From Patescibacteria group bacterium (GTDB taxonomy: Bacteria; Patescibacteriota; Microgenomatia; UBA8517), in contig JALHYA010000017.1 of NCBI GenBank assembly GCA_022868165.1, positions 11,634 to 75,633 on the forward strand: a stretch of 64,000 nt of DNA, read 5' to 3'. How positions within the stretch are numbered: position 1 is the first letter of the stretch; each line of letters opens with the position of its first letter. Below, piece by piece: positions 35 through 63,902 of the stretch. Under the pieces are notes generated by a model that did no database searches, was not told where the DNA came from, and saw nothing but the letters and a program-made list of their open reading frames with translations. The translations under genes and the position numbers were made by a program.

Positions 35-1012
35 TCAATCCTTAAGCTCCCCTAGGTATTTGATGGCATCCATGGCCGCCATGCAGCCGAAGCCGGCTGC
101 CGTTACTGCTTGTTTATATTGATAGTCGTGCACATCTCCCGAAACAAATACGCCCTGCACGTTGGTTGCGGTTTTGTATCCGCCAATTTTCTCGTCCCAA
201 AATCTTTTGACATAACCTTTCTCGTCAAGCTCGATCTTTCCTCCAAAGATTTGTGTTGAAGGAACGTGTCCTATTGCTACAAAAAGTCCGTCGACAGGAA
301 ATTCGCTAGTTGAATTGTCATAATTGCTCTTGAGCTTCAATTTTTCCAATTTCTGCTCACCAATCACTTCTGTCACTTCCGTGTTCCATAAAATTTTAAT
401 CTTGGGATTTTCCTTCACTTTCTGCTGCATTGCGGCGCTAGCCCTAAATTCATCGCGCCTGTGGATAATCGTTACTTCAGTCGCGTATTTTGTAAGTGTC
501 ACTGCCTCTTCCATTGCCGAATCCCCTCCTCCAACAACAACCACTTTTTTATCTTTGAAGAAGGCCGCGTCGCAAGGGGCGCAAGAAGAAACCCCGCGAC
601 CGATAAGCTTTTTGAGTCCCGGAACATCCAACCATTTTGTCTCCGCACCTGTAGCAATAATTATTGATTTTCCCAGATAAACCTTTCCCGCTGCTATAAC
701 TTCAAAAGGTTTTTTGGAAAAATCAACGTCGGTTGCATTTTCCCCAAGAAATTCCGCCCCAAAACGCTCGGCCTGAGCCCGCATCTCCCCCATTAACTTG
801 GGTCCCAAAATTCCCTGAGGAAAACCGGGAAAGTTATCAACTGTTGTGGTCAGCATAAGCTGGCCTCCCCAGACTTCTCCGCCGATAATTAGCGTTGAAG
901 CGGCTCCTCTGGTTGTATAAATTGCGGAAGTAAGCGCTGCAGGACCCGAGCCTATGATTATTACATCCCAAGACTCGCCTTGTTGCGGCTTTTTTGCGAA
1001 GGTTTCTTTCAT
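35..1012 (-). CDS. trxB: thioredoxin-disulfide reductase
   Basis: GSGPAALTSAIY FAD-binding motif and a second GGGDSAMEEA NAD(P)-binding motif. The redox-active disulfide is CAPCDA; the canonical TrxB motif is CATC. Confidence 0.9.
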   Translation of the reverse strand: MKETFAKKPQQGESWDVIIIGSGPAALTSAIYTTRGAASTLIIGGEVWGGQLMLTTTVDNFPGFPQGILGPKLMGEMRAQAERFGAEFLGENATDVDFSKKPFEVIAAGKVYLGKSIIIATGAETKWLDVPGLKKLIGRGVSSCAPCDAAFFKDKKVVVVGGGDSAMEEAVTLTKYATEVTIIHRRDEFRASAAMQQKVKENPKIKILWNTEVTEVIGEQKLEKLKLKSNYDNSTSEFPVDGLFVAIGHVPSTQIFGGKIELDEKGYVKRFWDEKIGGYKTATNVQGVFVSGDVHDYQYKQAVTAAGFGCMAAMDAIKYLGELKD

Positions 1013-1263: not shown

Positions 1264-1602
1264 TCAAATCACCCCCTTTTTAATCAAATCTTCGAATGCT
1301 TGTTTTCCTGCAAATCCTACCTGCCTTCCCAACTCTTTTCCCTCTTTAAAAAGAATTGTTGTGGGAATGGACATAACGCCGAATTTTGTTGCCGTATTGG
1401 GATTCGCATCAACATCTAATTTTGCGATTCCCACTTTGTCATTATACTCACCGGATAGTTCTTCCAAAACCGGCTCGGCCATTTTGCACGGACCGCACCA
1501 TGAAGCCCAAAAATCAACCAAAACTGGAGTCTTTTTCTGAATAACCTTTGTCTCGAAATCCGAATCCGTTATATTAAATGTCGTCATGATTTGTCGTTTC
1601 AA
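1264..1602 (-). CDS. trxA: thioredoxin
   Basis: WCGPC active site, about 110 aa, thioredoxin fold sequence pattern. Confidence 0.9.
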   Translation of the reverse strand: MKRQIMTTFNITDSDFETKVIQKKTPVLVDFWASWCGPCKMAEPVLEELSGEYNDKVGIAKLDVDANPNTATKFGVMSIPTTILFKEGKELGRQVGFAGKQAFEDLIKKGVI

Positions 1603-1638: not shown

Positions 1639-3723
1639 TCACAAACGCGTTCGCCTAAGGGTCAGTGCGTTGGCTACGACGATAAGCGATGAGGCACTCA
1701 TTAGGATGGCGCCGTATTCGGGGCGAAGCATTATACCCCAGGGGATAAATACTCCAGCTGCAGCCGGAATCGCCAATACGTTATATCCTGTTGCCCAAGC
1801 AAGATTTTGCTTCATCTTAGCATCTGTTTTTCGACTTAGAGCGATTACTTTGACAACATCCAGAGGGTTATTTTTTACTAATACTACTTCTGCGGACTCA
1901 ATGGCGACATCCGTTCCCGCTCCTATTGCGATACCAACATGGGCCTGCGTTAGACTTGGGGCATCGTTTACTCCATCCCCCACCATGCCGACGGTGTGGC
2001 CCATTGATTGAAGTTCTTTTACTTTATTTACCTTATCTTCTGGCAAAACCTCCGCAAAAACGGTATCTATTCCCAATCGTTCCCCCATCTCTTCTGCAAT
2101 CTCCTTTTTATCCCCCGTAAGCATCGCAATCTTTAATCCCATCCCATGAAGTCTATCAATTGCCTTTTTAGACTCCGGACGAACCTCATCTTCCAAAGTG
2201 ATATTGCCGATAAATTTTCCATCCTTCGTTACGGAAATATCTCTTCCTCCAACTTCTATCTTTGATTTTCCGACCATGCCTTCTATTCCCTTGCCTGGAT
2301 ACGATTTAAAATTTCTGACTTTTGGTATATCAATTCCTTTTTCCTTGGCTGCCATGACGATTGCCTTCGCAATCGGGTGCTGAGAATATATCTCAACCGC
2401 CGCGGCCAATCGCAAACACCCTTTGTTTGAAAACTTTGTTACTGCAAAATTTCCCGTTGTTAGCGTTCCGGTTTTGTCAAAAATTATGTAGTCCAGCTTT
2501 CTTGCAATTTCCAATCCCGCCATGTCGCGAATCAAAATCCCATTTCTGGCCGCCACAGCCGAAGTAATCGTTGTAACCGTCGGAATTGCCAATCCCAATG
2601 CGTGGGGACAGGTTATAACAATGACGGTGATGGCCAACGTTACTGCAAAAATCGCTCCGTGGGGATTGATAAAGAACCAATAAATAAAAGTTCCCGAGCC
2701 GACAACTATTGCGACAATTGTGAGTGCGTTTGCGGCTTTATCCGCAAGCTTTTGCACCGACGGCCTTGTTTCTTGAGCTTGACGAATAAGCTCCATTATT
2801 TGGGAGATAGCTGTTTCGCTTCCTGTTTTGGTTACTTTGACAGTCAAGGAGCCGTCATTATTAATAGTTCCGCCGATAACTTTATCGCCATTTTTCTTCC
2901 CTACGGGGCGGGATTCGCCGGTTATCATCCCCTCGTTTACCGAAGACTCTCCGTCTGTTACTACCCCATCGATAGGTATTTTCTCTCCGGGCCTTACCAG
3001 AACAGAATCCCCTACTTTGATTTCCCCGGTCGGGATGTCAACAACATCGCGACCGGACAATTTATGTGCCGCCGGAGGGATTAATTTAGCAAGTTCTCCG
3101 AGAGCATTGCCGGTCCCCAAAACAGCGCGCATCTCCATCCAATGCCCGAAAAGAAATGCCAAAACCAAAGTTGAAATTTCCCACCACAGCGATTCTCCCG
3201 TAAATAAAAATGTTGCGGCAACGGAAAAGAAATATCCCGAAATTACAGCGAGAGAAACCAGCGTCATCATGCCATAATTCTTGTTTCTTAATTCAACCAG
3301 CGCTTCTTTAAAGAATGGCCATCCGCCATAGAGGAAAATTATTGTTACAAGAAAAAATAATGATACATTATGATATGGAAGCGTCTTTTGAAATCCCAAC
3401 CATTGTTGGATTTTTGGAGAAAGAGCTAAAACGAGAATCGTTAGGGGCAGGGCAACAAAAAATCTTCTCTTAAAATCTTCCGCCATCATTGCGTGATGGT
3501 TCTCGTGACCCTTATGCTCCCCCACTTCTACAAGTGACATCCCGCATTTGGGACAAAAACCAGAAGCATCCTGTTTTACTTCAGGATGCATTGGACAAAG
3601 ATATTTATGTTCCACAGCTTCCTCCGCCCACAGCGTTTTGAGGAAGCGGACCAACTTTCTTTGCAATACCAGAGGCTCCAGTGCCTGAAGAAAAATCTTT
3701 TCCCAGCATCTCTTTTGCGTCAA
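1639..3723 (-). CDS. copB: heavy-metal (copper) translocating P1B-type ATPase, CPH-motif (CopB-like)
   Basis: DKTGTLT phosphorylation site, GDGVNDAP hinge, TM6 motif CPH ([12 protein letters not shown]), N-terminal CPMHPE...CPKCGM metal-binding module. Likely true start is an internal GTG near 3615, because the ORF overlaps the upstream gene by 119 bp. Confidence 0.9.
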
Positions 3724-4504
3724 CCTTATCCCAATCCAGATTCCTTGCGGTCTTCATGTAATAAGCATTTGTGATGTAAGTCTGGGAGAACCAAAAGGAA
3801 TTAAGCTCCAAAATATACTTGTAGATATCGTTTTCCGGAACGCCTTTTGAGACCAAAAGTTCAATCGCCGCCAAGGCTGCCATTCCGTGATTGCAGTCCG
3901 GAAACCAAGTGGGATTATCACAACAGGGTCTGTAAACCCCCTTGGCAATTCTGGCTACTTCATCCTGTTGCTCGACCGTGAGAGAAATCAAATCAAATTT
4001 ATTAAGATAATTTACTGCGTCCGACTTTGCCAAAGTCCAGCCTCCGGTTGAAGCAAAATTTCCTACCTCGGCCTTATAATCTGTGCCCAATGGTCCTTGG
4101 TCATAAACAATTGATTTTTGGGCAAGGCCCAAAGCCCAAAGAAAATCAACCACAAACTGGGAATTGGCAGCATCGATTTTTAGATTGTCGGATGAGCCTT
4201 CGGTTAATATCTTTCTTTGCTCCTCGGTCAGTTTAACGGCCTTTTCAAATTGGGCCATATCAATCACCCCGGCAGCAACGAGTTTGGGGCCGTAGTCGCC
4301 CCAGGAAACCGGCAAGGTAAAACCCTCTTTAGGAACAACTTTAGAGGAAATTTCGGCAATTGTTGCCAGTGCTTTAGCATCGCTCTTTGCTTTAACAATT
4401 ACTTGATACTTTTCTCTAAAAGTATTCATGTTCATTCCCAGGAGCAATCCCCCTACTCCCAAAACCAGGAAAGCGATTAGTATCAAAATATTTTTTCTAT
4501 TCAT
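3605..4504 (-). CDS. hypothetical exported protein with Cys/His cluster ([14 protein letters not shown])
   Basis: N-terminal signal/TM segment. 4-bp overlap with the upstream gene and overlap with the copB start. No recognisable family. Confidence 0.5.
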
Positions 4505-5067
4505 GCGAAGTTAAGCAATATAAACAAGATTATTGATGCTAGTAATATGCTTCCGAGGCTGAAAAATATCCTTTGATAAGGGAAGTAAACTTTTCCGTTT
4601 CTTTTAATAAGAAAGTTGTCCAAAATATCGACAAGATAAAAAATTGCTCCGCCCAAAACCAGTCCGAAGGTTAATCTATCCAACCCCATTATTTTGCTTA
4701 GATGGGTATTAATTAGGAAAAATTTCAGATTTAGAACCGCCCAGTTGTTAAAAGCATAAAAAGACCATATGGTTAACCCAAAAATCACAACGTAAATGGC
4801 AGGCTTTATAAACTTCCGGATTTGCCCGGAAATTTTGGCGTCGTATTTCCGAAGAATGAATGTGCCAAACCAAAAGGCTATCGCCCCCAAAAATGCCGCC
4901 ATCCAAAGACCTGTTATTGCATCATCAACTCCCAAAAATCTGGCAACGGAAAGCCCTACTACCGCTCCCCCGACACACAACGGACAATGGGCGGAAACCA
5001 CCGGGGGCAATATCAAATAGACACCTGGCAATAGAAGCAAAATTGTGATCTTTAAGGAATTTTTCAT
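4501..5067 (-). CDS. membrane protein with N-terminal CPxC motif (paralog of 5924-6442)
   Basis: Signal-like N-terminus then AHCPLCVGGAVVGLSVARFLGVDD. Multi-TM. Shares CPxC, GLxxxRxLGVDD and FxQRxxF motifs with the ORF at 5924-6442. Confidence 0.6.
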   Translation of the reverse strand: MKNSLKITILLLLPGVYLILPPVVSAHCPLCVGGAVVGLSVARFLGVDDAITGLWMAAFLGAIAFWFGTFILRKYDAKISGQIRKFIKPAIYVVIFGLTIWSFYAFNNWAVLNLKFFLINTHLSKIMGLDRLTFGLVLGGAIFYLVDILDNFLIKRNGKVYFPYQRIFFSLGSILLASIILFILLNFA

Positions 5068-5567
5068 TGGACCACATCCCCATTGAAGGTCAGTTCTTTC
5101 ATCCCACCGTCAAAATAAAGCCAAACGCTTCTCTGAACCTGTCCCAAACCTGCCAAACCATGGGCAGCCGGATCGAACCTTACGGTAACTTTGACAGTTT
5201 CGCCGTTTTTAACTGCCAAACTAAGGGTTGGGTTCGCCACACCGCTCATTTCCATTCCATAAAACGAAGATCCTTTCCCGCCGATGGTAACCGATGCTGT
5301 GGTACACATGCAGGATGTGGTGATTTTAAAAAGCTTAATATCCTTACCGGAAGCATTTTTTATCTCATACTCTTTGGTAACCAATCCCCCAGAATAAGGT
5401 ACGTTGCCCAAATCGTAATTTTGAGGATTTGACTCAATACCCTCGACCGGATTTGTAGAAATTGCAGCCTCGGTTTTTTGTTTTGTCGTAACTAAAAAGG
5501 TTAATCCGACAACCAACAAAATTGTTACAATAAAGGCTCCAATAATAAATTTACTTTCTCTGCTCAT
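5064..5567 (-). CDS. DUF1573-like domain protein (N-terminal TM anchor)
   Basis: TTSCMCTTASVTIGG resembles the DUF1573 SCGCT core. C-terminal pattern VKVTVRFDP...SVWLYFDGG. Member of the copper operon. Confidence 0.55.
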   Translation of the reverse strand: MSRESKFIIGAFIVTILLVVGLTFLVTTKQKTEAAISTNPVEGIESNPQNYDLGNVPYSGGLVTKEYEIKNASGKDIKLFKITTSCMCTTASVTIGGKGSSFYGMEMSGVANPTLSLAVKNGETVKVTVRFDPAAHGLAGLGQVQRSVWLYFDGGMKELTFNGDVVQ

Positions 5568-5833
5568 TTGCTTTTGCTAAATACTTCCACTATTTCTTTG
5601 ACTATTTTCTCTTTTTCGCCGGCTGGTTCGTGGATATCGTGAAGGACACAGGAGTGAAGATGGCCATGAAGAATAATTTCATCAACCTTTTTAAGAGCAG
5701 CCTGAACTGCCTGCGATTGATGTATAACATCTAAACAGTACGCATCTTCATCAAACATCTTGCGTACCCTTTTCAGATGCCCCTCGGCAATTGCCAACCT
5801 TCTTAATGTTTGTCTCTTAACGGAAGCGTCCAT
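5564..5833 (-). CDS. csoR: CsoR/RcnR-family metal-sensing transcriptional repressor
   Basis: 89 aa. Conserved YCLDVIHQSQAVQAAL and HLHSC motifs give the C-H-C copper ligand set. First gene of the overlapping operon. Confidence 0.85.
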   Translation of the reverse strand: MDASVKRQTLRRLAIAEGHLKRVRKMFDEDAYCLDVIHQSQAVQAALKKVDEIILHGHLHSCVLHDIHEPAGEKEKIVKEIVEVFSKSK

Positions 5834-5842
5834 ATGAAGTAG

Positions 5843-5861
5843 TATCCCCCCGGGGGGGATA
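5843..5861. promoter_or_regulatory. candidate CsoR operator: perfect GC-tract palindrome TATCCCCCC/GGGGGGGATA
   Basis: Read directly: tat-C6-G7-ata, centred between the divergent csoR and CPxC-paralog starts. Resembles known CsoR operators (AT-flanked C/G-tract inverted repeats). Confidence 0.6.
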
Positions 5862-5923
5862 TGCTGTCAAGAAGGTATTTTGTCCGTTGCGCCGAGATAG
5901 ACTTTTCCCATAGAATTCAATGT

Positions 5924-6442
5924 ATGAAGAAATTTCTAAAAGTCCTTTCTGTTTTTTCCCTATACTCTGTCCTCTCTATACTCTTCCCTTCTGTTACCTA
6001 CGCCGTCTGCCCCGTTTGCACAGTCGCAGTCGTGGCCGGGTTAGGACTTTCTAGGTGGTTGGGTGTTGACGATACCGTTTCGGGAATATGGATAGGCGGC
6101 GTCATTCTTTCTACCTCTTTCTTGTTTGCGAGCTGGCTAAAAAAGAAAAACATAACATTTCCGTACTTAACCGTTATTTCGGCCGCGATTATGTATGCTA
6201 TTGTTCTTCTTCCCTTACAGTTTGCCAAAATAATCGGTCATCCGTTGAATACCCTCTGGGGCGTTGATAAGCTAATTTTAGGCACCTTAATTGGTTCGGT
6301 CGTCTTTCTGACGGCGGTTTTTGCCGATAGAAAGGTCAGGGAAATCAAAGGAAAACAGCTTTTTATCTTCCAGAGAGTCATTTTTCCTGTTGGCGCACTT
6401 GCAATTATGTCTTTGGTGTTTTACTTTGTAACCAGACACTAA
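5924..6442 (+). CDS. membrane protein with N-terminal CPxC motif (paralog of 4501-5067)
   Basis: Start placed at MKKFLKV (signal-like). The list ORF begins at 5861, inside the palindrome. VCPVCTVAVVAGLGLSRWLGVDD motif. Transcribed divergently from csoR. Confidence 0.6.
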   Translation: MKKFLKVLSVFSLYSVLSILFPSVTYAVCPVCTVAVVAGLGLSRWLGVDDTVSGIWIGGVILSTSFLFASWLKKKNITFPYLTVISAAIMYAIVLLPLQFAKIIGHPLNTLWGVDKLILGTLIGSVVFLTAVFADRKVREIKGKQLFIFQRVIFPVGALAIMSLVFYFVTRH

Positions 6443-6443
6443 T

Positions 6444-6983
6444 ATGGCAGATAAAGCTGACGTAAAAAAACTATTGGATAAGGTCGAATCCGTCACGAAG
6501 GAGAAAAAACTCGACCTCTCCTCCGACGAAGACCTCTCTATAGGAATAATGAACCTCATTTCAATTGAGGAGCACCTTTTCTTCACTTCTCAAAAAACCG
6601 GCAAACAAATGTATCTGGATCTACTTAATGAGGTTCGGCTGATGCGAACCGAACTCATGAGAAAAATCATCAAGGACTACGAAGGAGAGGTCTGGTGCAT
6701 AAGCAAGCATTTACTTGCGGCTTCGATGAGAATGATGGAAGTCGGCACCAAAGAACTTAAAAAGGGCAATAAAAACGAGGCTTGGGAATTATTCGATAAA
6801 GGATACAAGCTCTATTCGATGTTCTGGGGCATCAATCTTGGAGTAATCAAGATGGACAGCATCAAAAGAGGAGATACAGAGGTTAACTTGGTAGACGAAA
6901 AATTTAACCTCAAGGGCAAGGTTTCCCTTTGGGATAAGCTTGGAGTAATTGTCAAAAAAGCCATCGACTGCTGCAAAGAATAA
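6444..6983 (+). CDS. hypothetical protein (179 aa)
   Basis: Starts 1 nt after the CPxC paralog stop, so likely co-transcribed. No recognisable motif. Confidence 0.45.
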   Translation: MADKADVKKLLDKVESVTKEKKLDLSSDEDLSIGIMNLISIEEHLFFTSQKTGKQMYLDLLNEVRLMRTELMRKIIKDYEGEVWCISKHLLAASMRMMEVGTKELKKGNKNEAWELFDKGYKLYSMFWGINLGVIKMDSIKRGDTEVNLVDEKFNLKGKVSLWDKLGVIVKKAIDCCKE

Positions 6984-7005: not shown

Positions 7006-7557
7006 CTATTCTACTGGGGTCAAAAGAAATAGATGAATAAATACTGTTTCTTCCTTATAAAAAATCGTTTCCTCCCCAAGGGTTAACGAAATATCTTCTC
7101 TACGGTCCAAAACTCTGTAGGCATATCTCCATTCTCCATTGTCCCCATCGGTCTCGGTGGGCATACAGGTTCTATCAAGTCTAGTCATGCCTCCCAGCCC
7201 TCTGATTTTCCATTTAAGGTAACCGGCTACATCTTTCTTTGTAATCCCCAGTTTTTCAAGTTGTTCCGCTGGGGCTACTCCTCCCGCATAAAGCCGAGTG
7301 AATTTTTTGCCATCTACCTCGACTACTTCCTGGCCACCACCGGTAATCTGAGCCAACCACTCATCATGATATACTCCCTCGGCCCCTTCATAATGGCTTG
7401 ATTCAAAGGAAAACCCTCCGCGGTCAACGGGTGTTCTAAGGTTGCGACCTGCATAACCAGAAGTTAGCCCTCTGGTCAAAATTTCTTTAATTTCTTTACT
7501 TATCACGACACCCGTAATATAGCACTCCGTTATGGTTAAAACAATTTTGTCCGCCAC
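7006..7557 (-). CDS. hypothetical protein (183 aa)
   Basis: Long ORF with protein-like composition. No family recognised. Confidence 0.45.
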   Translation of the reverse strand: MADKIVLTITECYITGVVISKEIKEILTRGLTSGYAGRNLRTPVDRGGFSFESSHYEGAEGVYHDEWLAQITGGGQEVVEVDGKKFTRLYAGGVAPAEQLEKLGITKKDVAGYLKWKIRGLGGMTRLDRTCMPTETDGDNGEWRYAYRVLDRREDISLTLGEETIFYKEETVFIHLFLLTPVE

Positions 7558-7609: not shown

Positions 7610-8143
7610 TTACAGCAAAAATCCAAAAAGGAGAAGAATCCCCGCGTTTGCCGCCAGATATAAATTTGCTTGATTTTTATTTAGAACAATCGGAGTCTGT
7701 CTAAACCAATTTATCAGACCATTTGTCTCCATCAAATCCACAACCTCATCAACTATCAAATGCAGCATAAAAGCCAGCACTATTCCTCTGCCGAATACGC
7801 TTCCCGACGAGGTTACCACCAAAAAGGCAAAAACCAGGAAAATTATCTGGAAAAGGGCGGTGTGGAAAATAAGCTTTGTCCGCTCGTTTCTGGTCTCGGC
7901 AAGCAAACTTAGGCTCCCCCATAAATCGCGTTGCCCAATCATGTGATTAAATCTTTGGGAAACGTATTCCTGCGGCCTAAGAAAAAAGACATAAAGAAGA
8001 TGGTCCAAGTCCGGAAGCATGGTTCCAACCAATCCCCCAACCCAAAACGGCCAATATGAGAGAGTCGTCCAGCCGCGCATTAAAGAAACAAAAACAAAGA
8101 AGGAAACTAAAAAGGAAAAATGGATAAAAATCTCTTTCTTCAC
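7610..8143 (-). CDS. hypothetical membrane protein (possible membrane-bound metal-dependent hydrolase, LPDLDHLL motif)
   Basis: Multiple hydrophobic segments plus a D/H motif. Confidence 0.45.
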   Translation of the reverse strand: MKKEIFIHFSFLVSFFVFVSLMRGWTTLSYWPFWVGGLVGTMLPDLDHLLYVFFLRPQEYVSQRFNHMIGQRDLWGSLSLLAETRNERTKLIFHTALFQIIFLVFAFLVVTSSGSVFGRGIVLAFMLHLIVDEVVDLMETNGLINWFRQTPIVLNKNQANLYLAANAGILLLFGFLL

Positions 8144-8180: not shown

Positions 8181-9158
8181 TTAGTCCGTAAATACTTGTA
8201 CAAACATTTTTCCGTAGAAGCCGTTGTCAATAAGGCCAATTCCGACTTTATGAAATCTCGGTTCCAAAATATTCGCCCTGTGGCCTTCGGAATTTATTAG
8301 TCCCGTCATTGCGGTTTCAACAGTGGGCGCCAGAGCTAAATTTTCTCCAGCAAAACTAAAGCTAATATGGGCCGCCGTGAGCCTATCCCCGACATCCTGT
8401 CCTTCCGGTGAATAATGTGAGAAATATTGCCTAACCCACATATCTTTTGCGTGTGCTCGGGCAACTTCGGTAATCGCAGGAGACCATGTCAGAGCAGCAA
8501 CTCCCCGACTTGTTCTCTCTTTATTTACCATAGCAAACATTTGCTCCTCACTTTGGCTATCGACCGAAAGATTCTGACTTCCAACAGTTAAAGGCACGGA
8601 TTCTTTGCTTCCGGGTTTAATCGTAAAGTAGGTTAAAGATTCATTGACCGCTCCTCCAAAAATCTCGTTTATTTTCTTTTCTACCCCCGAAGTTTCTTTA
8701 ATAATTAAGCCTCCGATTTTGGACTTGGACTCCGCTTCTTTAAGCTGGGGATTTACCGGAAGACCCAGAATAAAAGTCAGAATAAAGGCTATTAAGATTA
8801 GCCCCTCACCCAGCGCGGGCAAAATTGCCAGGTATTTTGAGTATTTGCTGTTCCAATACTTCTCCGGAAGCTTGGTTATAAGGTGCGCAAAAACATAACC
8901 CAAAAGGGCTTCGCTAAGTATCGCCGTAAGTAGAAAACCCAACGCGTTCGCTATTGAATGGGAAAGAGAAAAGTTGCTTTCCAGAATCCCCGCGGCAAAT
9001 TTATATCCCCGAAGGGAAATCAATAAGGAACCCAAAAAGGCTGCAAAGTCTGCCAAAAGCACCCAAATTCCGTGACGCCAAGCCTCGCTGATGAAGTAAA
9101 TAAGAACAAGGATAATAACCAGGTCAACCCAATTTCCGTGCAGAGCAGGAATCTTCAT
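8181..9158 (-). CDS. CvpA-like membrane domain fused to CAP/SCP (YkwD-like) domain
   Basis: N-terminal TM bundle typical of colicin V production protein. C-terminal motif set typical of CAP domains (HYSPEGQDVGDR, GENLA, HRANIL). Confidence 0.7.
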   Translation of the reverse strand: MKIPALHGNWVDLVIILVLIYFISEAWRHGIWVLLADFAAFLGSLLISLRGYKFAAGILESNFSLSHSIANALGFLLTAILSEALLGYVFAHLITKLPEKYWNSKYSKYLAILPALGEGLILIAFILTFILGLPVNPQLKEAESKSKIGGLIIKETSGVEKKINEIFGGAVNESLTYFTIKPGSKESVPLTVGSQNLSVDSQSEEQMFAMVNKERTSRGVAALTWSPAITEVARAHAKDMWVRQYFSHYSPEGQDVGDRLTAAHISFSFAGENLALAPTVETAMTGLINSEGHRANILEPRFHKVGIGLIDNGFYGKMFVQVFTD

Positions 9159-14303: not shown

Positions 14304-15368
14304 CTATTTATTGGCAATCACATACTTTGATGCTTTTGTGCTTCCTTCTTTTTTGATAATCCCCTTGTCCAAGGCGTCTTTTAAATCTCTCAAAATCGTA
14401 TCTTCCGAAACCATAGGCAAAACTTTTGTTAGCTCCTGCATATTGGCCGAGCCTTGGTCGGAAATGTATTCGATGAGCCTCATTTGTCTCTCGGTAAGTG
14501 CAATCTGCTGACCGAATTTAACCTTGAGTCTCGTATCAATAGACAATTTGCGGACTTTTTCCTTAACCTTACTAAGCTCCACGGCCACAACTTCGGTAAA
14601 GTACTCAAGCCATGGTGTTAAATCCCTTAGGGCTATGTTTTTGCTTTGCCTGTCCACCCTGGCAAAGGCTTCGTAGTAAGCTGCCGGGTTTTCGTCAAAA
14701 CTTTCCTCCATAGAAAAGAAGCGTTTTATGTCATAGCCTTCACGAATAAGAAGAAGGGTGGTAAAAGCCCTGGCCGTTCTTCCGTTTCCTTCTACAAACG
14801 GGTGGATTGCGACCAAGGTGTAGTGCGCAATTCCGGCGCGAAGAATTGGATGCACTTCCATTGCTTCCGGAGAGTTAAGCCAAGCAAAGAAGTCGTCTAT
14901 AAGGTATGGAACTTCCACAAAAGGAGGCGGCTGAAAAATAATTTGCCCTGTCTCTTCTTCCTTTACAACAACCTCTGTTGTGCGAAAAACACCCGCTTTT
15001 TCATCGGGAATAATCTTAAACACCGTTTCTTTATGAATTTCCTTGAGCATTTCGACATCATATCCTCCCCTTTTAACACCCATGTCGTCCAAAAGTGTGA
15101 CAACGTTTCTGTAATTAATAACTTCCTGAATATCGCGGGCGTGTGCGTAAACCTCCTGCCCTTCCAAGACCTTTTTTGTTTGGACAAGTGTTAGGTCGTT
15201 TCCTTCGATATGGGTTCCATGATAAATCGTTCTGACAATTGCGTCCGACTGGAACTGTTTTTCGAAAGAAGGAACCAATGGGGCGTTTTCAATAACTTCC
15301 TTTGAAGCCTCAACCGCACCGATACTTTTTAAGATTTTACCGGAGATTACGTATTTTGGAGCGTACAT
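14304..15368 (-). CDS. Fic/DOC family protein with C-terminal winged-helix
   Basis: Canonical Fic motif HPFVEGNGRTAR. N-terminal THIEGN inhibitory-helix-like motif. C-terminal wHTH. Confidence 0.85.
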   Translation of the reverse strand: MYAPKYVISGKILKSIGAVEASKEVIENAPLVPSFEKQFQSDAIVRTIYHGTHIEGNDLTLVQTKKVLEGQEVYAHARDIQEVINYRNVVTLLDDMGVKRGGYDVEMLKEIHKETVFKIIPDEKAGVFRTTEVVVKEEETGQIIFQPPPFVEVPYLIDDFFAWLNSPEAMEVHPILRAGIAHYTLVAIHPFVEGNGRTARAFTTLLLIREGYDIKRFFSMEESFDENPAAYYEAFARVDRQSKNIALRDLTPWLEYFTEVVAVELSKVKEKVRKLSIDTRLKVKFGQQIALTERQMRLIEYISDQGSANMQELTKVLPMVSEDTILRDLKDALDKGIIKKEGSTKASKYVIANK

Positions 15369-62894: not shown

Positions 62895-63902
62895 TCAGGA
62901 ATCCTTAATCAAGCTCCATGTGGCATATTCTTGGGGAGTTAATCTCAACTTTTTTGATGATTTTCTGCCGTATGACCTTGCAAAATGCGGAACCAAAATG
63001 TGCCTTTCATAGGACGAAATAATTACAGGGTGAATATAATACTTTCTGCATACTCTTTTGGTGTTGCCCAGGTGAACTGAGACCACGGCAACCACTTCAG
63101 AAATATTATTCTTAAGTTCGTTTTTGTCTTTGGCGTTTCCCTTCTTGTAAAGTGAATCCCCCGCCATAACGCTTCCGCCCCAAGTCCGAAAATCTTTTGC
63201 AGAAAAGTCCGCCCCCGTATGGGTTTTCAGATAATCATTTACATCCCCAGAATCCACCACTTGTGTGTTTTTGTCGCTATCGAAATATTGAAAAATCTCA
63301 TATCCGGGAATATCAAGACAGTCTTTCATGGTTTTTGCAACTCTCGAATTTGTCACATCAAGCTCATGGAAAACTCCGCTTTTTCCTTCAAAATTAAAGG
63401 TCAAAGTGTTACCTCTAACTTCTATATGTTTATCGCGCATGGTTGTAAGTCCGTATGACTGGTTTTCCTCGGCATACTCTTTGCTCCCCACCCTTATGAA
63501 AGTGTGTTCCAAAAGCCAAATTACAGTAGCAATGACACGGTCTTTCGTCAGCCTGCGTTCATTCATGTGGGCTTTTACTGTTTTCCTTAAAGTTGGGAGT
63601 CTTTCACCAAAGATTATCATTTGGTCAAATTTATGCTCCTGATTACGCTTTATCCACTCGGGATGATAAATGTACTGCTTGCGACCGCGGTCATCCACTC
63701 CGATTGCCTGAATATAATCCCAAGGATCGGCACTTATGACAACCTCGTGCCATGCGGGAGGGATTGCCAAGCCTAAAACCCGTGCTTTTGCAATTTTGGA
63801 AATGCGTTTTCCTTTTTCATTGATGAAGCCAAAACCCTTATCCTTTTTTATGCGACGCCAGGGAAGATTAGTATCTTTACGATAATGAACCTGAGACACC
63901 AT
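62895..63902 (-). CDS. DNA topoisomerase IB (poxvirus/Deinococcus type)
   Basis: N-terminal GFGFINEKGKRI...IPPAWHEV. Catalytic region KDFRTWGGS. HLGNTKRVCRKYYIHP with active-site Tyr. About 335 aa. Confidence 0.8.
   Translation of the reverse strand: MVSQVHYRKDTNLPWRRIKKDKGFGFINEKGKRISKIAKARVLGLAIPPAWHEVVISADPWDYIQAIGVDDRGRKQYIYHPEWIKRNQEHKFDQMIIFGERLPTLRKTVKAHMNERRLTKDRVIATVIWLLEHTFIRVGSKEYAEENQSYGLTTMRDKHIEVRGNTLTFNFEGKSGVFHELDVTNSRVAKTMKDCLDIPGYEIFQYFDSDKNTQVVDSGDVNDYLKTHTGADFSAKDFRTWGGSVMAGDSLYKKGNAKDKNELKNNISEVVAVVSVHLGNTKRVCRKYYIHPVIISSYERHILVPHFARSYGRKSSKKLRLTPQEYATWSLIKDS

Follow-up and report, generated by a model that had tools for sequence, protein, structure and literature searches.

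The window, by which we mean the whole 64,000-nucleotide stretch of DNA that was analysed, from a metagenome-assembled Patescibacteria genome (contig JALHYA010000017.1), carries on its minus strand a tightly packed operon of five genes in the order csoR, DUF1573, paralog A, p299 and P1B ATPase. Paralog A is a membrane protein with a CPxC motif and has 100% identity to MUP46_03900, a protein from a Patescibacteria group bacterium. A second member of the same family, paralog B, is encoded divergently, together with a protein of 179 residues, p179. All seven open reading frames (ORFs) were found in the ORF listing where an earlier note on this DNA had placed them. The genes and the elements between csoR and paralog B are given below, with the basis of each assignment in brackets.

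5564-5833, minus strand: csoR, copper-sensing repressor of 89 residues (PF02583)
5064-5567, minus strand: DUF1573 (Ig-like) protein, exported and membrane-anchored (PF07610)
4501-5067, minus strand: CPxC membrane paralog A, 188 residues (family alignment; without Pfam or NCBIfam match)
3605-4504, minus strand: p299, N-terminally anchored exported protein of 299 residues (conserved Cys motifs; without Pfam match)
1639-3615, minus strand: CopB-like (CPH) P1B-type copper ATPase with an N-terminal HMBD domain, GTG start at 3615 (TIGR01511)
5924-6442, plus strand: CPxC membrane paralog B, 172 residues, motif A-V-C-P-V-C, divergent from csoR (29% identity to A)
6444-6983, plus strand: p179, without signal peptide and presumably cytoplasmic (conserved family alignment; without Pfam, NCBIfam or PDB match)
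5843-5861, no strand: putative CsoR-type operator TATCCCCCCGGGGGGGATA, a GC-tract palindrome (read in the sequence)
5841-5870, minus strand: sigma-70-like promoter of the csoR operon, TTGACA-18-GATACT (consensus match only)

The earlier note described the five genes as overlapping by 4 bp each. This is correct for csoR/DUF1573, DUF1573/A and A/p299, where stop and start overlap in the four nucleotides ATGA, but not for the last junction. There, the p299 stop codon (3605-3607) and the GTG start of the ATPase at 3615 give an overlap of 11 nt. GTG 3615 is the sole ATPase start that retains the first HMBD cysteine, and GGAGG is located 5 nt upstream of it. For paralog B, ATG 5924 (MKKF...) is probably the start and not 5861, because the form starting at 5861 would add two non-conserved cysteines. 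A gap of 1 nt lies between the stop of B and the start of p179. None of DUF1573, A, B, p299 and p179 contains any cysteine other than the conserved ones. The order of the five genes, from csoR to the CPH ATPase, is confirmed by the agreement of ORFs and family scans, and the second CPxC gene with its 179-residue partner is indeed transcribed divergently. The arrangement is more than chance: about 40 species share the gene order, and the palindrome is found upstream of csoR in 50 of 65 loci.

CsoR matches PF02583 with 76.8 bits (cut-off 22.8, E=1.8e-21); its best NCBIfam match is RicR, with a score under the RicR cut-off. The residues C33, H58 and C62 form a Cys-His-Cys triad, and Tyr32 precedes the first Cys. 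We take the spacing of the triad to be equal to that of the Cu(I) triad C36/H61/C65 in Mycobacterium tuberculosis CsoR. A CstR-type persulfide sensor was rejected because the triad His (H58) is present. The intergenic region between csoR and B comprises 90 bp (5834-5923) and contains TATCCCCCCGGGGGGGATA. In a promoter scan of this region, the minus-strand TTGACA-18-GATACT was the best-scoring site (10/12 matches), and the palindrome overlaps both its spacer and its -10 hexamer. An element of the form ATATCCCC-N0-6-GGGGATAT precedes csoR in 50 of 65 distinct related loci. With a Cu(I) triad in the repressor and a conserved operator overlapping the promoter, copper-dependent de-repression of the five-gene operon via CsoR is well supported as an inference from the sequence.

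The ATPase scores 581 bits against the copper subfamily TIGR01511 (cut-off 397, E=2.5e-174) and also matches PF00122, PF00702 and PF19335 (HMBD, E=1.5e-11). Its translation carries the motifs ITCPHALG (CPH) and DKTGT. By these matches, it is a CopB-like P1B-type copper ATPase of the CPH type and a predicted Cu(I) exporter. The DUF1573 protein matches PF07610 with 42.9 bits (cut-off 26.1), and C86-x-C88 are its sole cysteines. In the homologues of the operon DUF1573, S-C-M-C is invariant; they retain S-C-x-C, a Met about 13 residues after it and DP..HG. Selenocysteine (UGC) forms of DUF1573 at the CxC position are listed in selenoproteome surveys (PMC9312934, PMC13188914). Hence, the first Cys is marked as chemically active.

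After the copper ATPase, the window contains trxA (1264-1602, minus strand) and trxB (35-1012, minus strand), with an 80-residue Pro/Thr-rich low-complexity ORF (1021-1263) between them. The order ATPase-trxA-trxB is repeated in more than 20 Microgenomates loci. Woesebacteria copper operons (L003/L004, 7755-12188; L001, 7926-9374) have extra small genes, which lie either after the ATPase or between it and p299. These encode YHS, DUF5676, a free HMBD peptide and a 225-residue AhpC-TSA/Redoxin protein.

Aligned from end to end, the membrane paralogs A and B share 29% identity (E=8e-21), and the alignment bears out the pattern A-x-C-P-x-C ... R-x-LGVDD that the note had seen in both. Across the family, which comprises 567 clusters at 50% identity, A26, C28, P29, C31 and Q165 are invariant, as is the cytoplasmic loop FPYQR that includes Q165. 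Hidden Markov model scans of Pfam and NCBIfam, proposed in the note as a check, gave no match for A or B and place neither them nor p299 in any known family. A profile search of PDB sequences with the CPxC family returned nothing under E=0.79. The other proposed check, structure prediction, was carried out for A and p299 with AlphaFold2 (AF2). The model of A (predicted local distance difference test, pLDDT, 85) predicts a signal-like helix, then a helix of 16 residues starting at CPLC, and four long helices; Foldseek found no PDB match for it.

The residue in front of the cysteine pair divides the family. All 44 A-type proteins have H-CPLC, and B-type proteins have [V/I/M/F]-CP[V/I]C. The invariant His beside the Cys pair, present only in the A-type, fits a Cys2His Cu(I) site. 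An invariant A-x-A just before the CPxC helix resembles, as we infer, a signal-peptidase site. Cleavage at A-x-A/H-C-P-L-C would expose an N-terminal histidine brace; this was rejected as a feature that defines the family, since in the B-type the position of the His is taken by Val, Ile, Met or Phe, and is a possibility for the A-type only.

The distribution of Lys and Arg was used to orient the proteins. Averaged over the family, the N-terminus contains 2.2 such residues, and the H3-H4 and H5-H6 loops contain 3.7 each, which places these segments inside. The loops preceding and following the CPxC helix contain 0.3 and 0, respectively, which places them outside. In fusion proteins (described below), the chain runs from a thioredoxin domain on the outside through one helix to a basic loop on the inside and through a second helix back out to CPxC. 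As fusion topology and charge distribution agree, CPxC faces outside. Therefore, the CPxC helix belongs to the outer leaflet, as a re-entrant or interfacial element.

To describe the genomic company of the two types, one genome per species was scanned. Relatives were present in 197 genomes, 80 loci were kept, and the window proteins were searched against six-frame ORFs of these loci. The 44 A-type genes, all Microgenomates/Woesebacteria-like, encode proteins 39-60% identical to A. DUF1573 is directly upstream in 41 of 41 cases and p299 directly downstream in 38 of 42; csoR lies within 1.5 kb in 35/41 and a P1B ATPase within 6 kb in 24/25. A thioredoxin-like gene upstream was found in 0/41. The order DUF1573, A, p299 near csoR and ATPase thus occurs in about 40 Microgenomates species.

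The 54 B-type genes come from Parcubacteria, Moranbacteria, Saccharibacteria, Berkelbacteria and Falkowbacteria and from two metagenome-assembled genomes (MAGs), one of Bathyarchaeia and one of Micrarchaeota. Directly downstream is p179 (45/46), and in 28 of the 54 cases, a gene for an exported CPHC thioredoxin-like protein is directly upstream; DUF1573 never is (0/54). A P1B ATPase is located within 6 kb in 11/27, most of the 11 having the divergent arrangement seen in the window, and B-type genes are mostly without csoR or ATPase close by. The note had proposed to test co-occurrence with csoR and copB and had named a neighbourhood that is not conserved as one of two findings that would speak against its proposal. 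Co-occurrence holds for A (csoR 35/41, ATPase 24/25), whereas for B it fails outside Microgenomates, so one half of the note's objection to itself applies. Among 108 genes scanned near B/p179 pairs (L050-L086), the most frequent non-housekeeping matches were HMA (6), DsbD_2/CcdA-like (4), Cupredoxin_1 (4) and P-type ATPase (3).

The gene upstream of the B-type encodes a protein of about 125 residues with an N-terminal anchor followed by a thioredoxin/glutaredoxin-fold domain (for example, L057:9621-9998, L085:9567-9944 and L001:4544-5008). CPHC, a Val before the cis-Pro (GVP) and a second Cys pair are invariant, and the protein matches the PDB glutaredoxin 7c10 (E=2.6e-6). A further link is provided by gene fusions. 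Among the 150 best CPxC cluster representatives, 18 are at least 250 residues long, and in 13 of these 18, the CPxC domain is preceded by a signal peptide, a thioredoxin-like CxxC domain and a transmembrane helix. The CxxC dipeptides of the fused domains vary (CPHC, CPYC, CQYC, CPNC and others), and four of seven scanned fusions gave weak Pfam matches to Glutaredoxin, Glrx-like or Thioredoxin_2. The fusions thus connect the CPxC family to exported thioredoxin-fold proteins independently of gene order. In one 305-residue representative (P0406), the CPxC domain is fused to an N-terminal Nitro_FeMo-Co domain (PF02579), which replaces the thioredoxin-like domain.

The protein p179 belongs to a family of at least 8,000 homologues and has no Pfam, NCBIfam or PDB sequence match. 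Its invariant residues are E42-E43-H44, E-G-E-W-C85-I-S-K-H89 and the terminal C176-C177-x-E. The identity between the window protein and those from other Patescibacteria classes and a Bathyarchaeia MAG is 49-69%. A protein so conserved may well be an enzyme or an essential factor. It is found within 4.5 kb upstream of A in 22 of 35 A-type loci, and in nine of these, the B gene is absent. In one case (L021), p179 is inside the operon, in the order csoR, p179, DUF1573, A, p299. Thus, p179 may serve both paralogs, and the FPYQR loop of the CPxC proteins is a candidate contact for it.

The protein p299 has the invariant motifs RPCC-x8-C-N-H-G and, at the C-terminus, GGSCG[A/T]; its alignment has 59 invariant columns. 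The family has more than 5,600 homologues, and p299 has no Pfam or NCBIfam match and no sequence relative in the PDB. The AF2 model (pLDDT 93) predicts a mainly helical protein with a disordered C-terminal tail and has no Foldseek match in the PDB. Of 48 aligned homologues, 11 carry an inserted rhodanese domain past the membrane anchor, with its active-site Cys intact. A p299-centred metagenome scan kept 80 loci, 76 of them distinct. Within 4 kb of p299, DUF1573 was found in 21/21, a P1B ATPase in 19/21 and csoR in 15/21, and a CPxC gene is directly upstream of p299 in 25/46. DUF1573 and the ATPase are near p299 even at loci without a CPxC gene. Thus, paralog A was added to an older association of DUF1573, p299 and ATPase.

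Our preferred reading, which we hold tentatively and with somewhat less than even confidence, is a combined thiol-protection and Cu(I)-capture relay, in which surface cysteine proteins are co-expressed with a CopB-type pump under CsoR. On rising copper, CsoR would be released from its operator, and the five genes would be made together. The ATPase would expel Cu(I). DUF1573, with its CxC and conserved Met and His, and p299, with CC...C-x-H and a flexible C-terminal Cys, would capture Cu(I) at the surface; alternatively or additionally, they would repair surface thiols mis-oxidised by copper. Paralog A, with H-CPLC on a re-entrant helix in the outer leaflet, would be their membrane partner and swap a disulfide or Cu(I)-thiolate with the CxC of DUF1573. 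The ancestral B-type protein would do likewise, its partner being the exported thioredoxin-fold protein with the DsbA-like CPHC. On the cytoplasmic side, p179, which has invariant Cys and His residues, would be the likely partner of both paralogs. Overall, the CPxC family seems to supply the membrane partner for thiol-disulfide or Cu(I)-thiolate exchange, with paralog A as its apparent copper-specialised offshoot; both a disulfide and a Cu(I) ion are plausible as the exchanged entity.

The note had proposed a copper-handling or chaperone role in the membrane for both paralogs. For A, a link to copper is supported by its csoR/ATPase context and by H-CPLC in 44/44 proteins, but it does not extend to the family, as B-type genes go with p179 and thioredoxin-like genes. 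The thioredoxin-like partners and fusions of the B-type, together with its few copper genes, point to thiol-disulfide exchange as the ancestral activity and not to a dedicated copper chaperone. The note also held that characterised cop/cso systems do not include such a role. This went too far: a functional precedent, though a non-homologous one, is known in the Scs thiol oxidoreductases, which are induced by copper (PMC10907172, PMC8900818).

Several observations weigh against the relay. The A-type loci are phylogenetically clustered, with most of them in the single lineage Microgenomates/Woesebacteria, so their counts are not independent. Of 35 A-type loci, 12 have no B, p179 or thioredoxin-like gene nearby, and no homologue of the thioredoxin-like partner was found in the whole 64-kb window. 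Thioredoxin folds and CxxC motifs can bind metal too, and the fusions, therefore, do not separate redox exchange from metal hand-off. The CPxC proteins contain just one Cys pair, no cofactor site that could serve a recycling route is recognisable in them, and they show no sequence or fold similarity to DsbB, VKOR, MauE or DsbD/CcdA. The Cys3His set of p299 could be a structural zinc site. As to control of B by CsoR, no plus-strand promoter passed the intergenic scan; by eye, TTGCGC-18-TAGAAT is a weak plus-strand candidate, with the operator upstream of it.

The alternative that fares best is a pure copper chaperone or relay: A, DUF1573 and p299 would take Cu(I) from the exit of CopB and sequester or release it, their Cys motifs being ligands only, without disulfide chemistry. 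The strict association with csoR and ATPase would suit such a role, and so would the A-specific His, which gives a Cys2His set resembling the Cu(I) site of CsoR, and the Met and His that DUF1573 conserves beyond its CxC. Moreover, DUF1573 and p299 track the ATPase without a CPxC gene, and HMA and cupredoxin are the commonest non-housekeeping neighbours of B/p179 pairs. The company of the B-type argues the other way, as B-type and p179 genes are mostly without copper genes, and the partner has DsbA-like hallmarks (CPHC, Val before cis-Pro, second Cys pair). The CxxC dipeptides of the fused domains vary in the manner typical of redox tuning, and the rhodanese insertion in p299 points to sulfur/thiol chemistry. 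On balance, we consider the pure chaperone unlikely, although it keeps a substantial share of our belief.

A Mer-like relay for metal import or metallation would pass Cu(I) inward for cuproproteins, from an exported CxxC via CPxC to the C-terminal Cys-Cys of p179, with A as the copper-regulated version. The three-part layout parallels MerP-MerT-MerA, and p179 adjoins csoR in 22/35 A-type loci. Against it, the CPxC proteins are without cysteines on the cytoplasmic side and without Pfam similarity to MerT, MerC or MerF, and physiologically one would hardly expect a copper sensor that acts by de-repression to induce an importer along with an efflux pump; such a relay is improbable. Least probable is inherited synteny without functional coupling, that is, an unrelated membrane role with a structural Cys pair in genomes of shared Microgenomates ancestry: the A-type loci are mostly from one lineage, with counts that are not phylogenetically independent, and trxA, trxB and YdjM are likewise syntenic in them, but this leaves aside the 4-nt start/stop overlaps on both flanks of A, its place between DUF1573 and p299 even where csoR and ATPase have moved (L003, L009), the independent fusions to thioredoxin-like domains, the subfamily-specific invariant His and the Saccharibacteria L054 and Micrarchaeota L073 loci, which also combine a CPxC gene, p299 and an ATPase.

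The relay with thiol protection, as the preferred reading, can be extended to a broader and more doubtful proposal. Here, the CPxC family, p179 and the exported CPHC thioredoxin-like protein would form an unrecognised transmembrane thiol-disulfide system of Patescibacteria and some DPANN-type archaea, non-homologous to DsbB, VKOR, MauE and DsbD, and A, DUF1573 and p299 would be its copper-stress branch wired to CsoR/CopB. We regard the broader proposal as rather unlikely as a whole. If true, the CPxC/p179/CPHC system would fill a gap in the making or repair of extracellular disulfides in quinone-poor, reduced-genome organisms. Should the membrane protein turn out to be a new disulfide-exchange enzyme, it would represent one more class next to DsbB, VKOR and MauE, the last of them proposed recently. 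It would also address gaps in bacterial oxidative folding, whose pathways are unidentified in about 20% of surveyed bacterial species, in a survey that does not mention Patescibacteria (bioRxiv 10.64898/2026.03.05.709764). Likewise, it would show a link of copper defence to surface thiol protection in a monoderm, respiration-poor cell. Patescibacteria make up a large share of bacterial diversity, and their envelope biochemistry is almost unknown. Through gene order, translational coupling, fusion and the conserved operator, three large unannotated families (p179, p299 and CPxC) are now tied to copper efflux and thioredoxin-type thiol chemistry, and each family thereby gains a testable function.

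Other genes of the window were annotated as well. A bacterial type IB topoisomerase is encoded at 62895-63902 (minus strand; PF01028, E=7.6e-38, plus Top1B_N_bact) and a Fic/DOC family protein at 14304-15368 (minus strand). A 183-residue ORF at 7006-7557 (minus strand) has no Pfam or NCBIfam match and no homologue in 86 loci. At 8181-9158 (minus strand), there is a CvpA (Colicin_V)-CAP fusion protein; in Woesebacteria (L001), its gene and a YdjM-like gene (7610-8143) are found in synteny with the operon.

Finally, we compared the module with known systems. Judged by their sequences, csoR and the ATPase are ordinary family members, and CPxC, p299 and p179 are outside any described family. In outline, the module resembles the Scs, Dsb or CcdA systems in its working, but by sequence and motifs it does not belong to them. 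Literature searches on DUF1573 and copper, and on Candidate Phyla Radiation, copper and CsoR, found nothing on this module. DsbB, VKOR, MauE/DoxX, DsbD/CcdA, MerT and CopD were tried as identities for the CPxC family, and none was matched in Pfam by 53 members at E up to 5. Membership in DsbD/CcdA/ScsB was rejected on the missing Pfam match and because both cysteines are in one CPxC motif, and membership in MerT/MerC/MerF because of the missing Pfam match and the lack of cytoplasm-side cysteines.

MerP-MerT-MerA: The order of Cys pairs is alike, with an exported CxxC, a membrane pair and a cytoplasmic C-terminal Cys-Cys. There is no homology, the membrane protein in our case has no cytoplasm-side cysteines, and p179 is without a reductase domain.

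CopG and PspE: CopG is a periplasmic CxCC protein with a tetranuclear copper cluster, and PspE is a periplasmic single-domain rhodanese. We take p299 to resemble CopG in its exported CC...C-x-H cluster beside copper export genes, and many p299 homologues carry a single-domain rhodanese that would be exported in the manner of PspE. The p299 fold has no PDB match in Foldseek, and p299 has no Pfam relation to CopG (DUF411) or to any other family.

DsbA-DsbB, DsbA-VKOR and MauD-MauE: These pairs likewise have a small helical membrane protein with a Cys pair on the outer face, whose gene is adjacent or fused to that of an exported CPHC thioredoxin fold; thioredoxin-VKOR fusions are a parallel. The predicted layout of the CPxC proteins, with four transmembrane helices, a re-entrant helix with an outward CPxC and a partner adjacent or fused, may resemble that of DsbB and VKOR, but the model has no Foldseek match in the PDB, and there is one Cys pair, whereas DsbB and VKOR have two. 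Judged from sequence and model only, a quinone site as in DsbB, VKOR or MauE is not evident. The obligatory conserved non-secreted partner p179 has no counterpart in the Dsb, VKOR and MauE systems.

ScsABCD of Salmonella, Proteus and Caulobacter: Copper-linked envelope thiol proteins are common to both systems. Scs proteins are copper-induced envelope thiol-disulfide oxidoreductases that protect against copper, and the thioredoxin-fold partners, whether soluble or anchored, are recycled by the membrane protein ScsB (PMC10907172, PMC8900818, PMC3322552). The CxxC of ScsC serves both redox work and high-affinity Cu(I) binding (PMC10907172, PMC8900818, PMC5524982). There is no homology: ScsB belongs to the DsbD family and has cysteines in two transmembrane helices and periplasmic domains, whereas the window membrane protein has one CPxC pair on a predicted re-entrant helix. 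Its partner in the operon is the Ig-like DUF1573 and not a thioredoxin fold, and the regulator is CsoR instead of CpxR/CueR.

csoR-copZ-copA of Bacillus and the csoR/ricR regulons of Mycobacterium: The window operon shares with these a repressor with the C-H-C triad, a GC-tract palindrome on the promoter and a co-transcribed P1B ATPase. It differs in being without a CopZ/HMA chaperone and in its pump, which is CPH-type with an HMBD N-terminus, and it has three exported or membrane cysteine proteins of uncharacterised families between repressor and pump.

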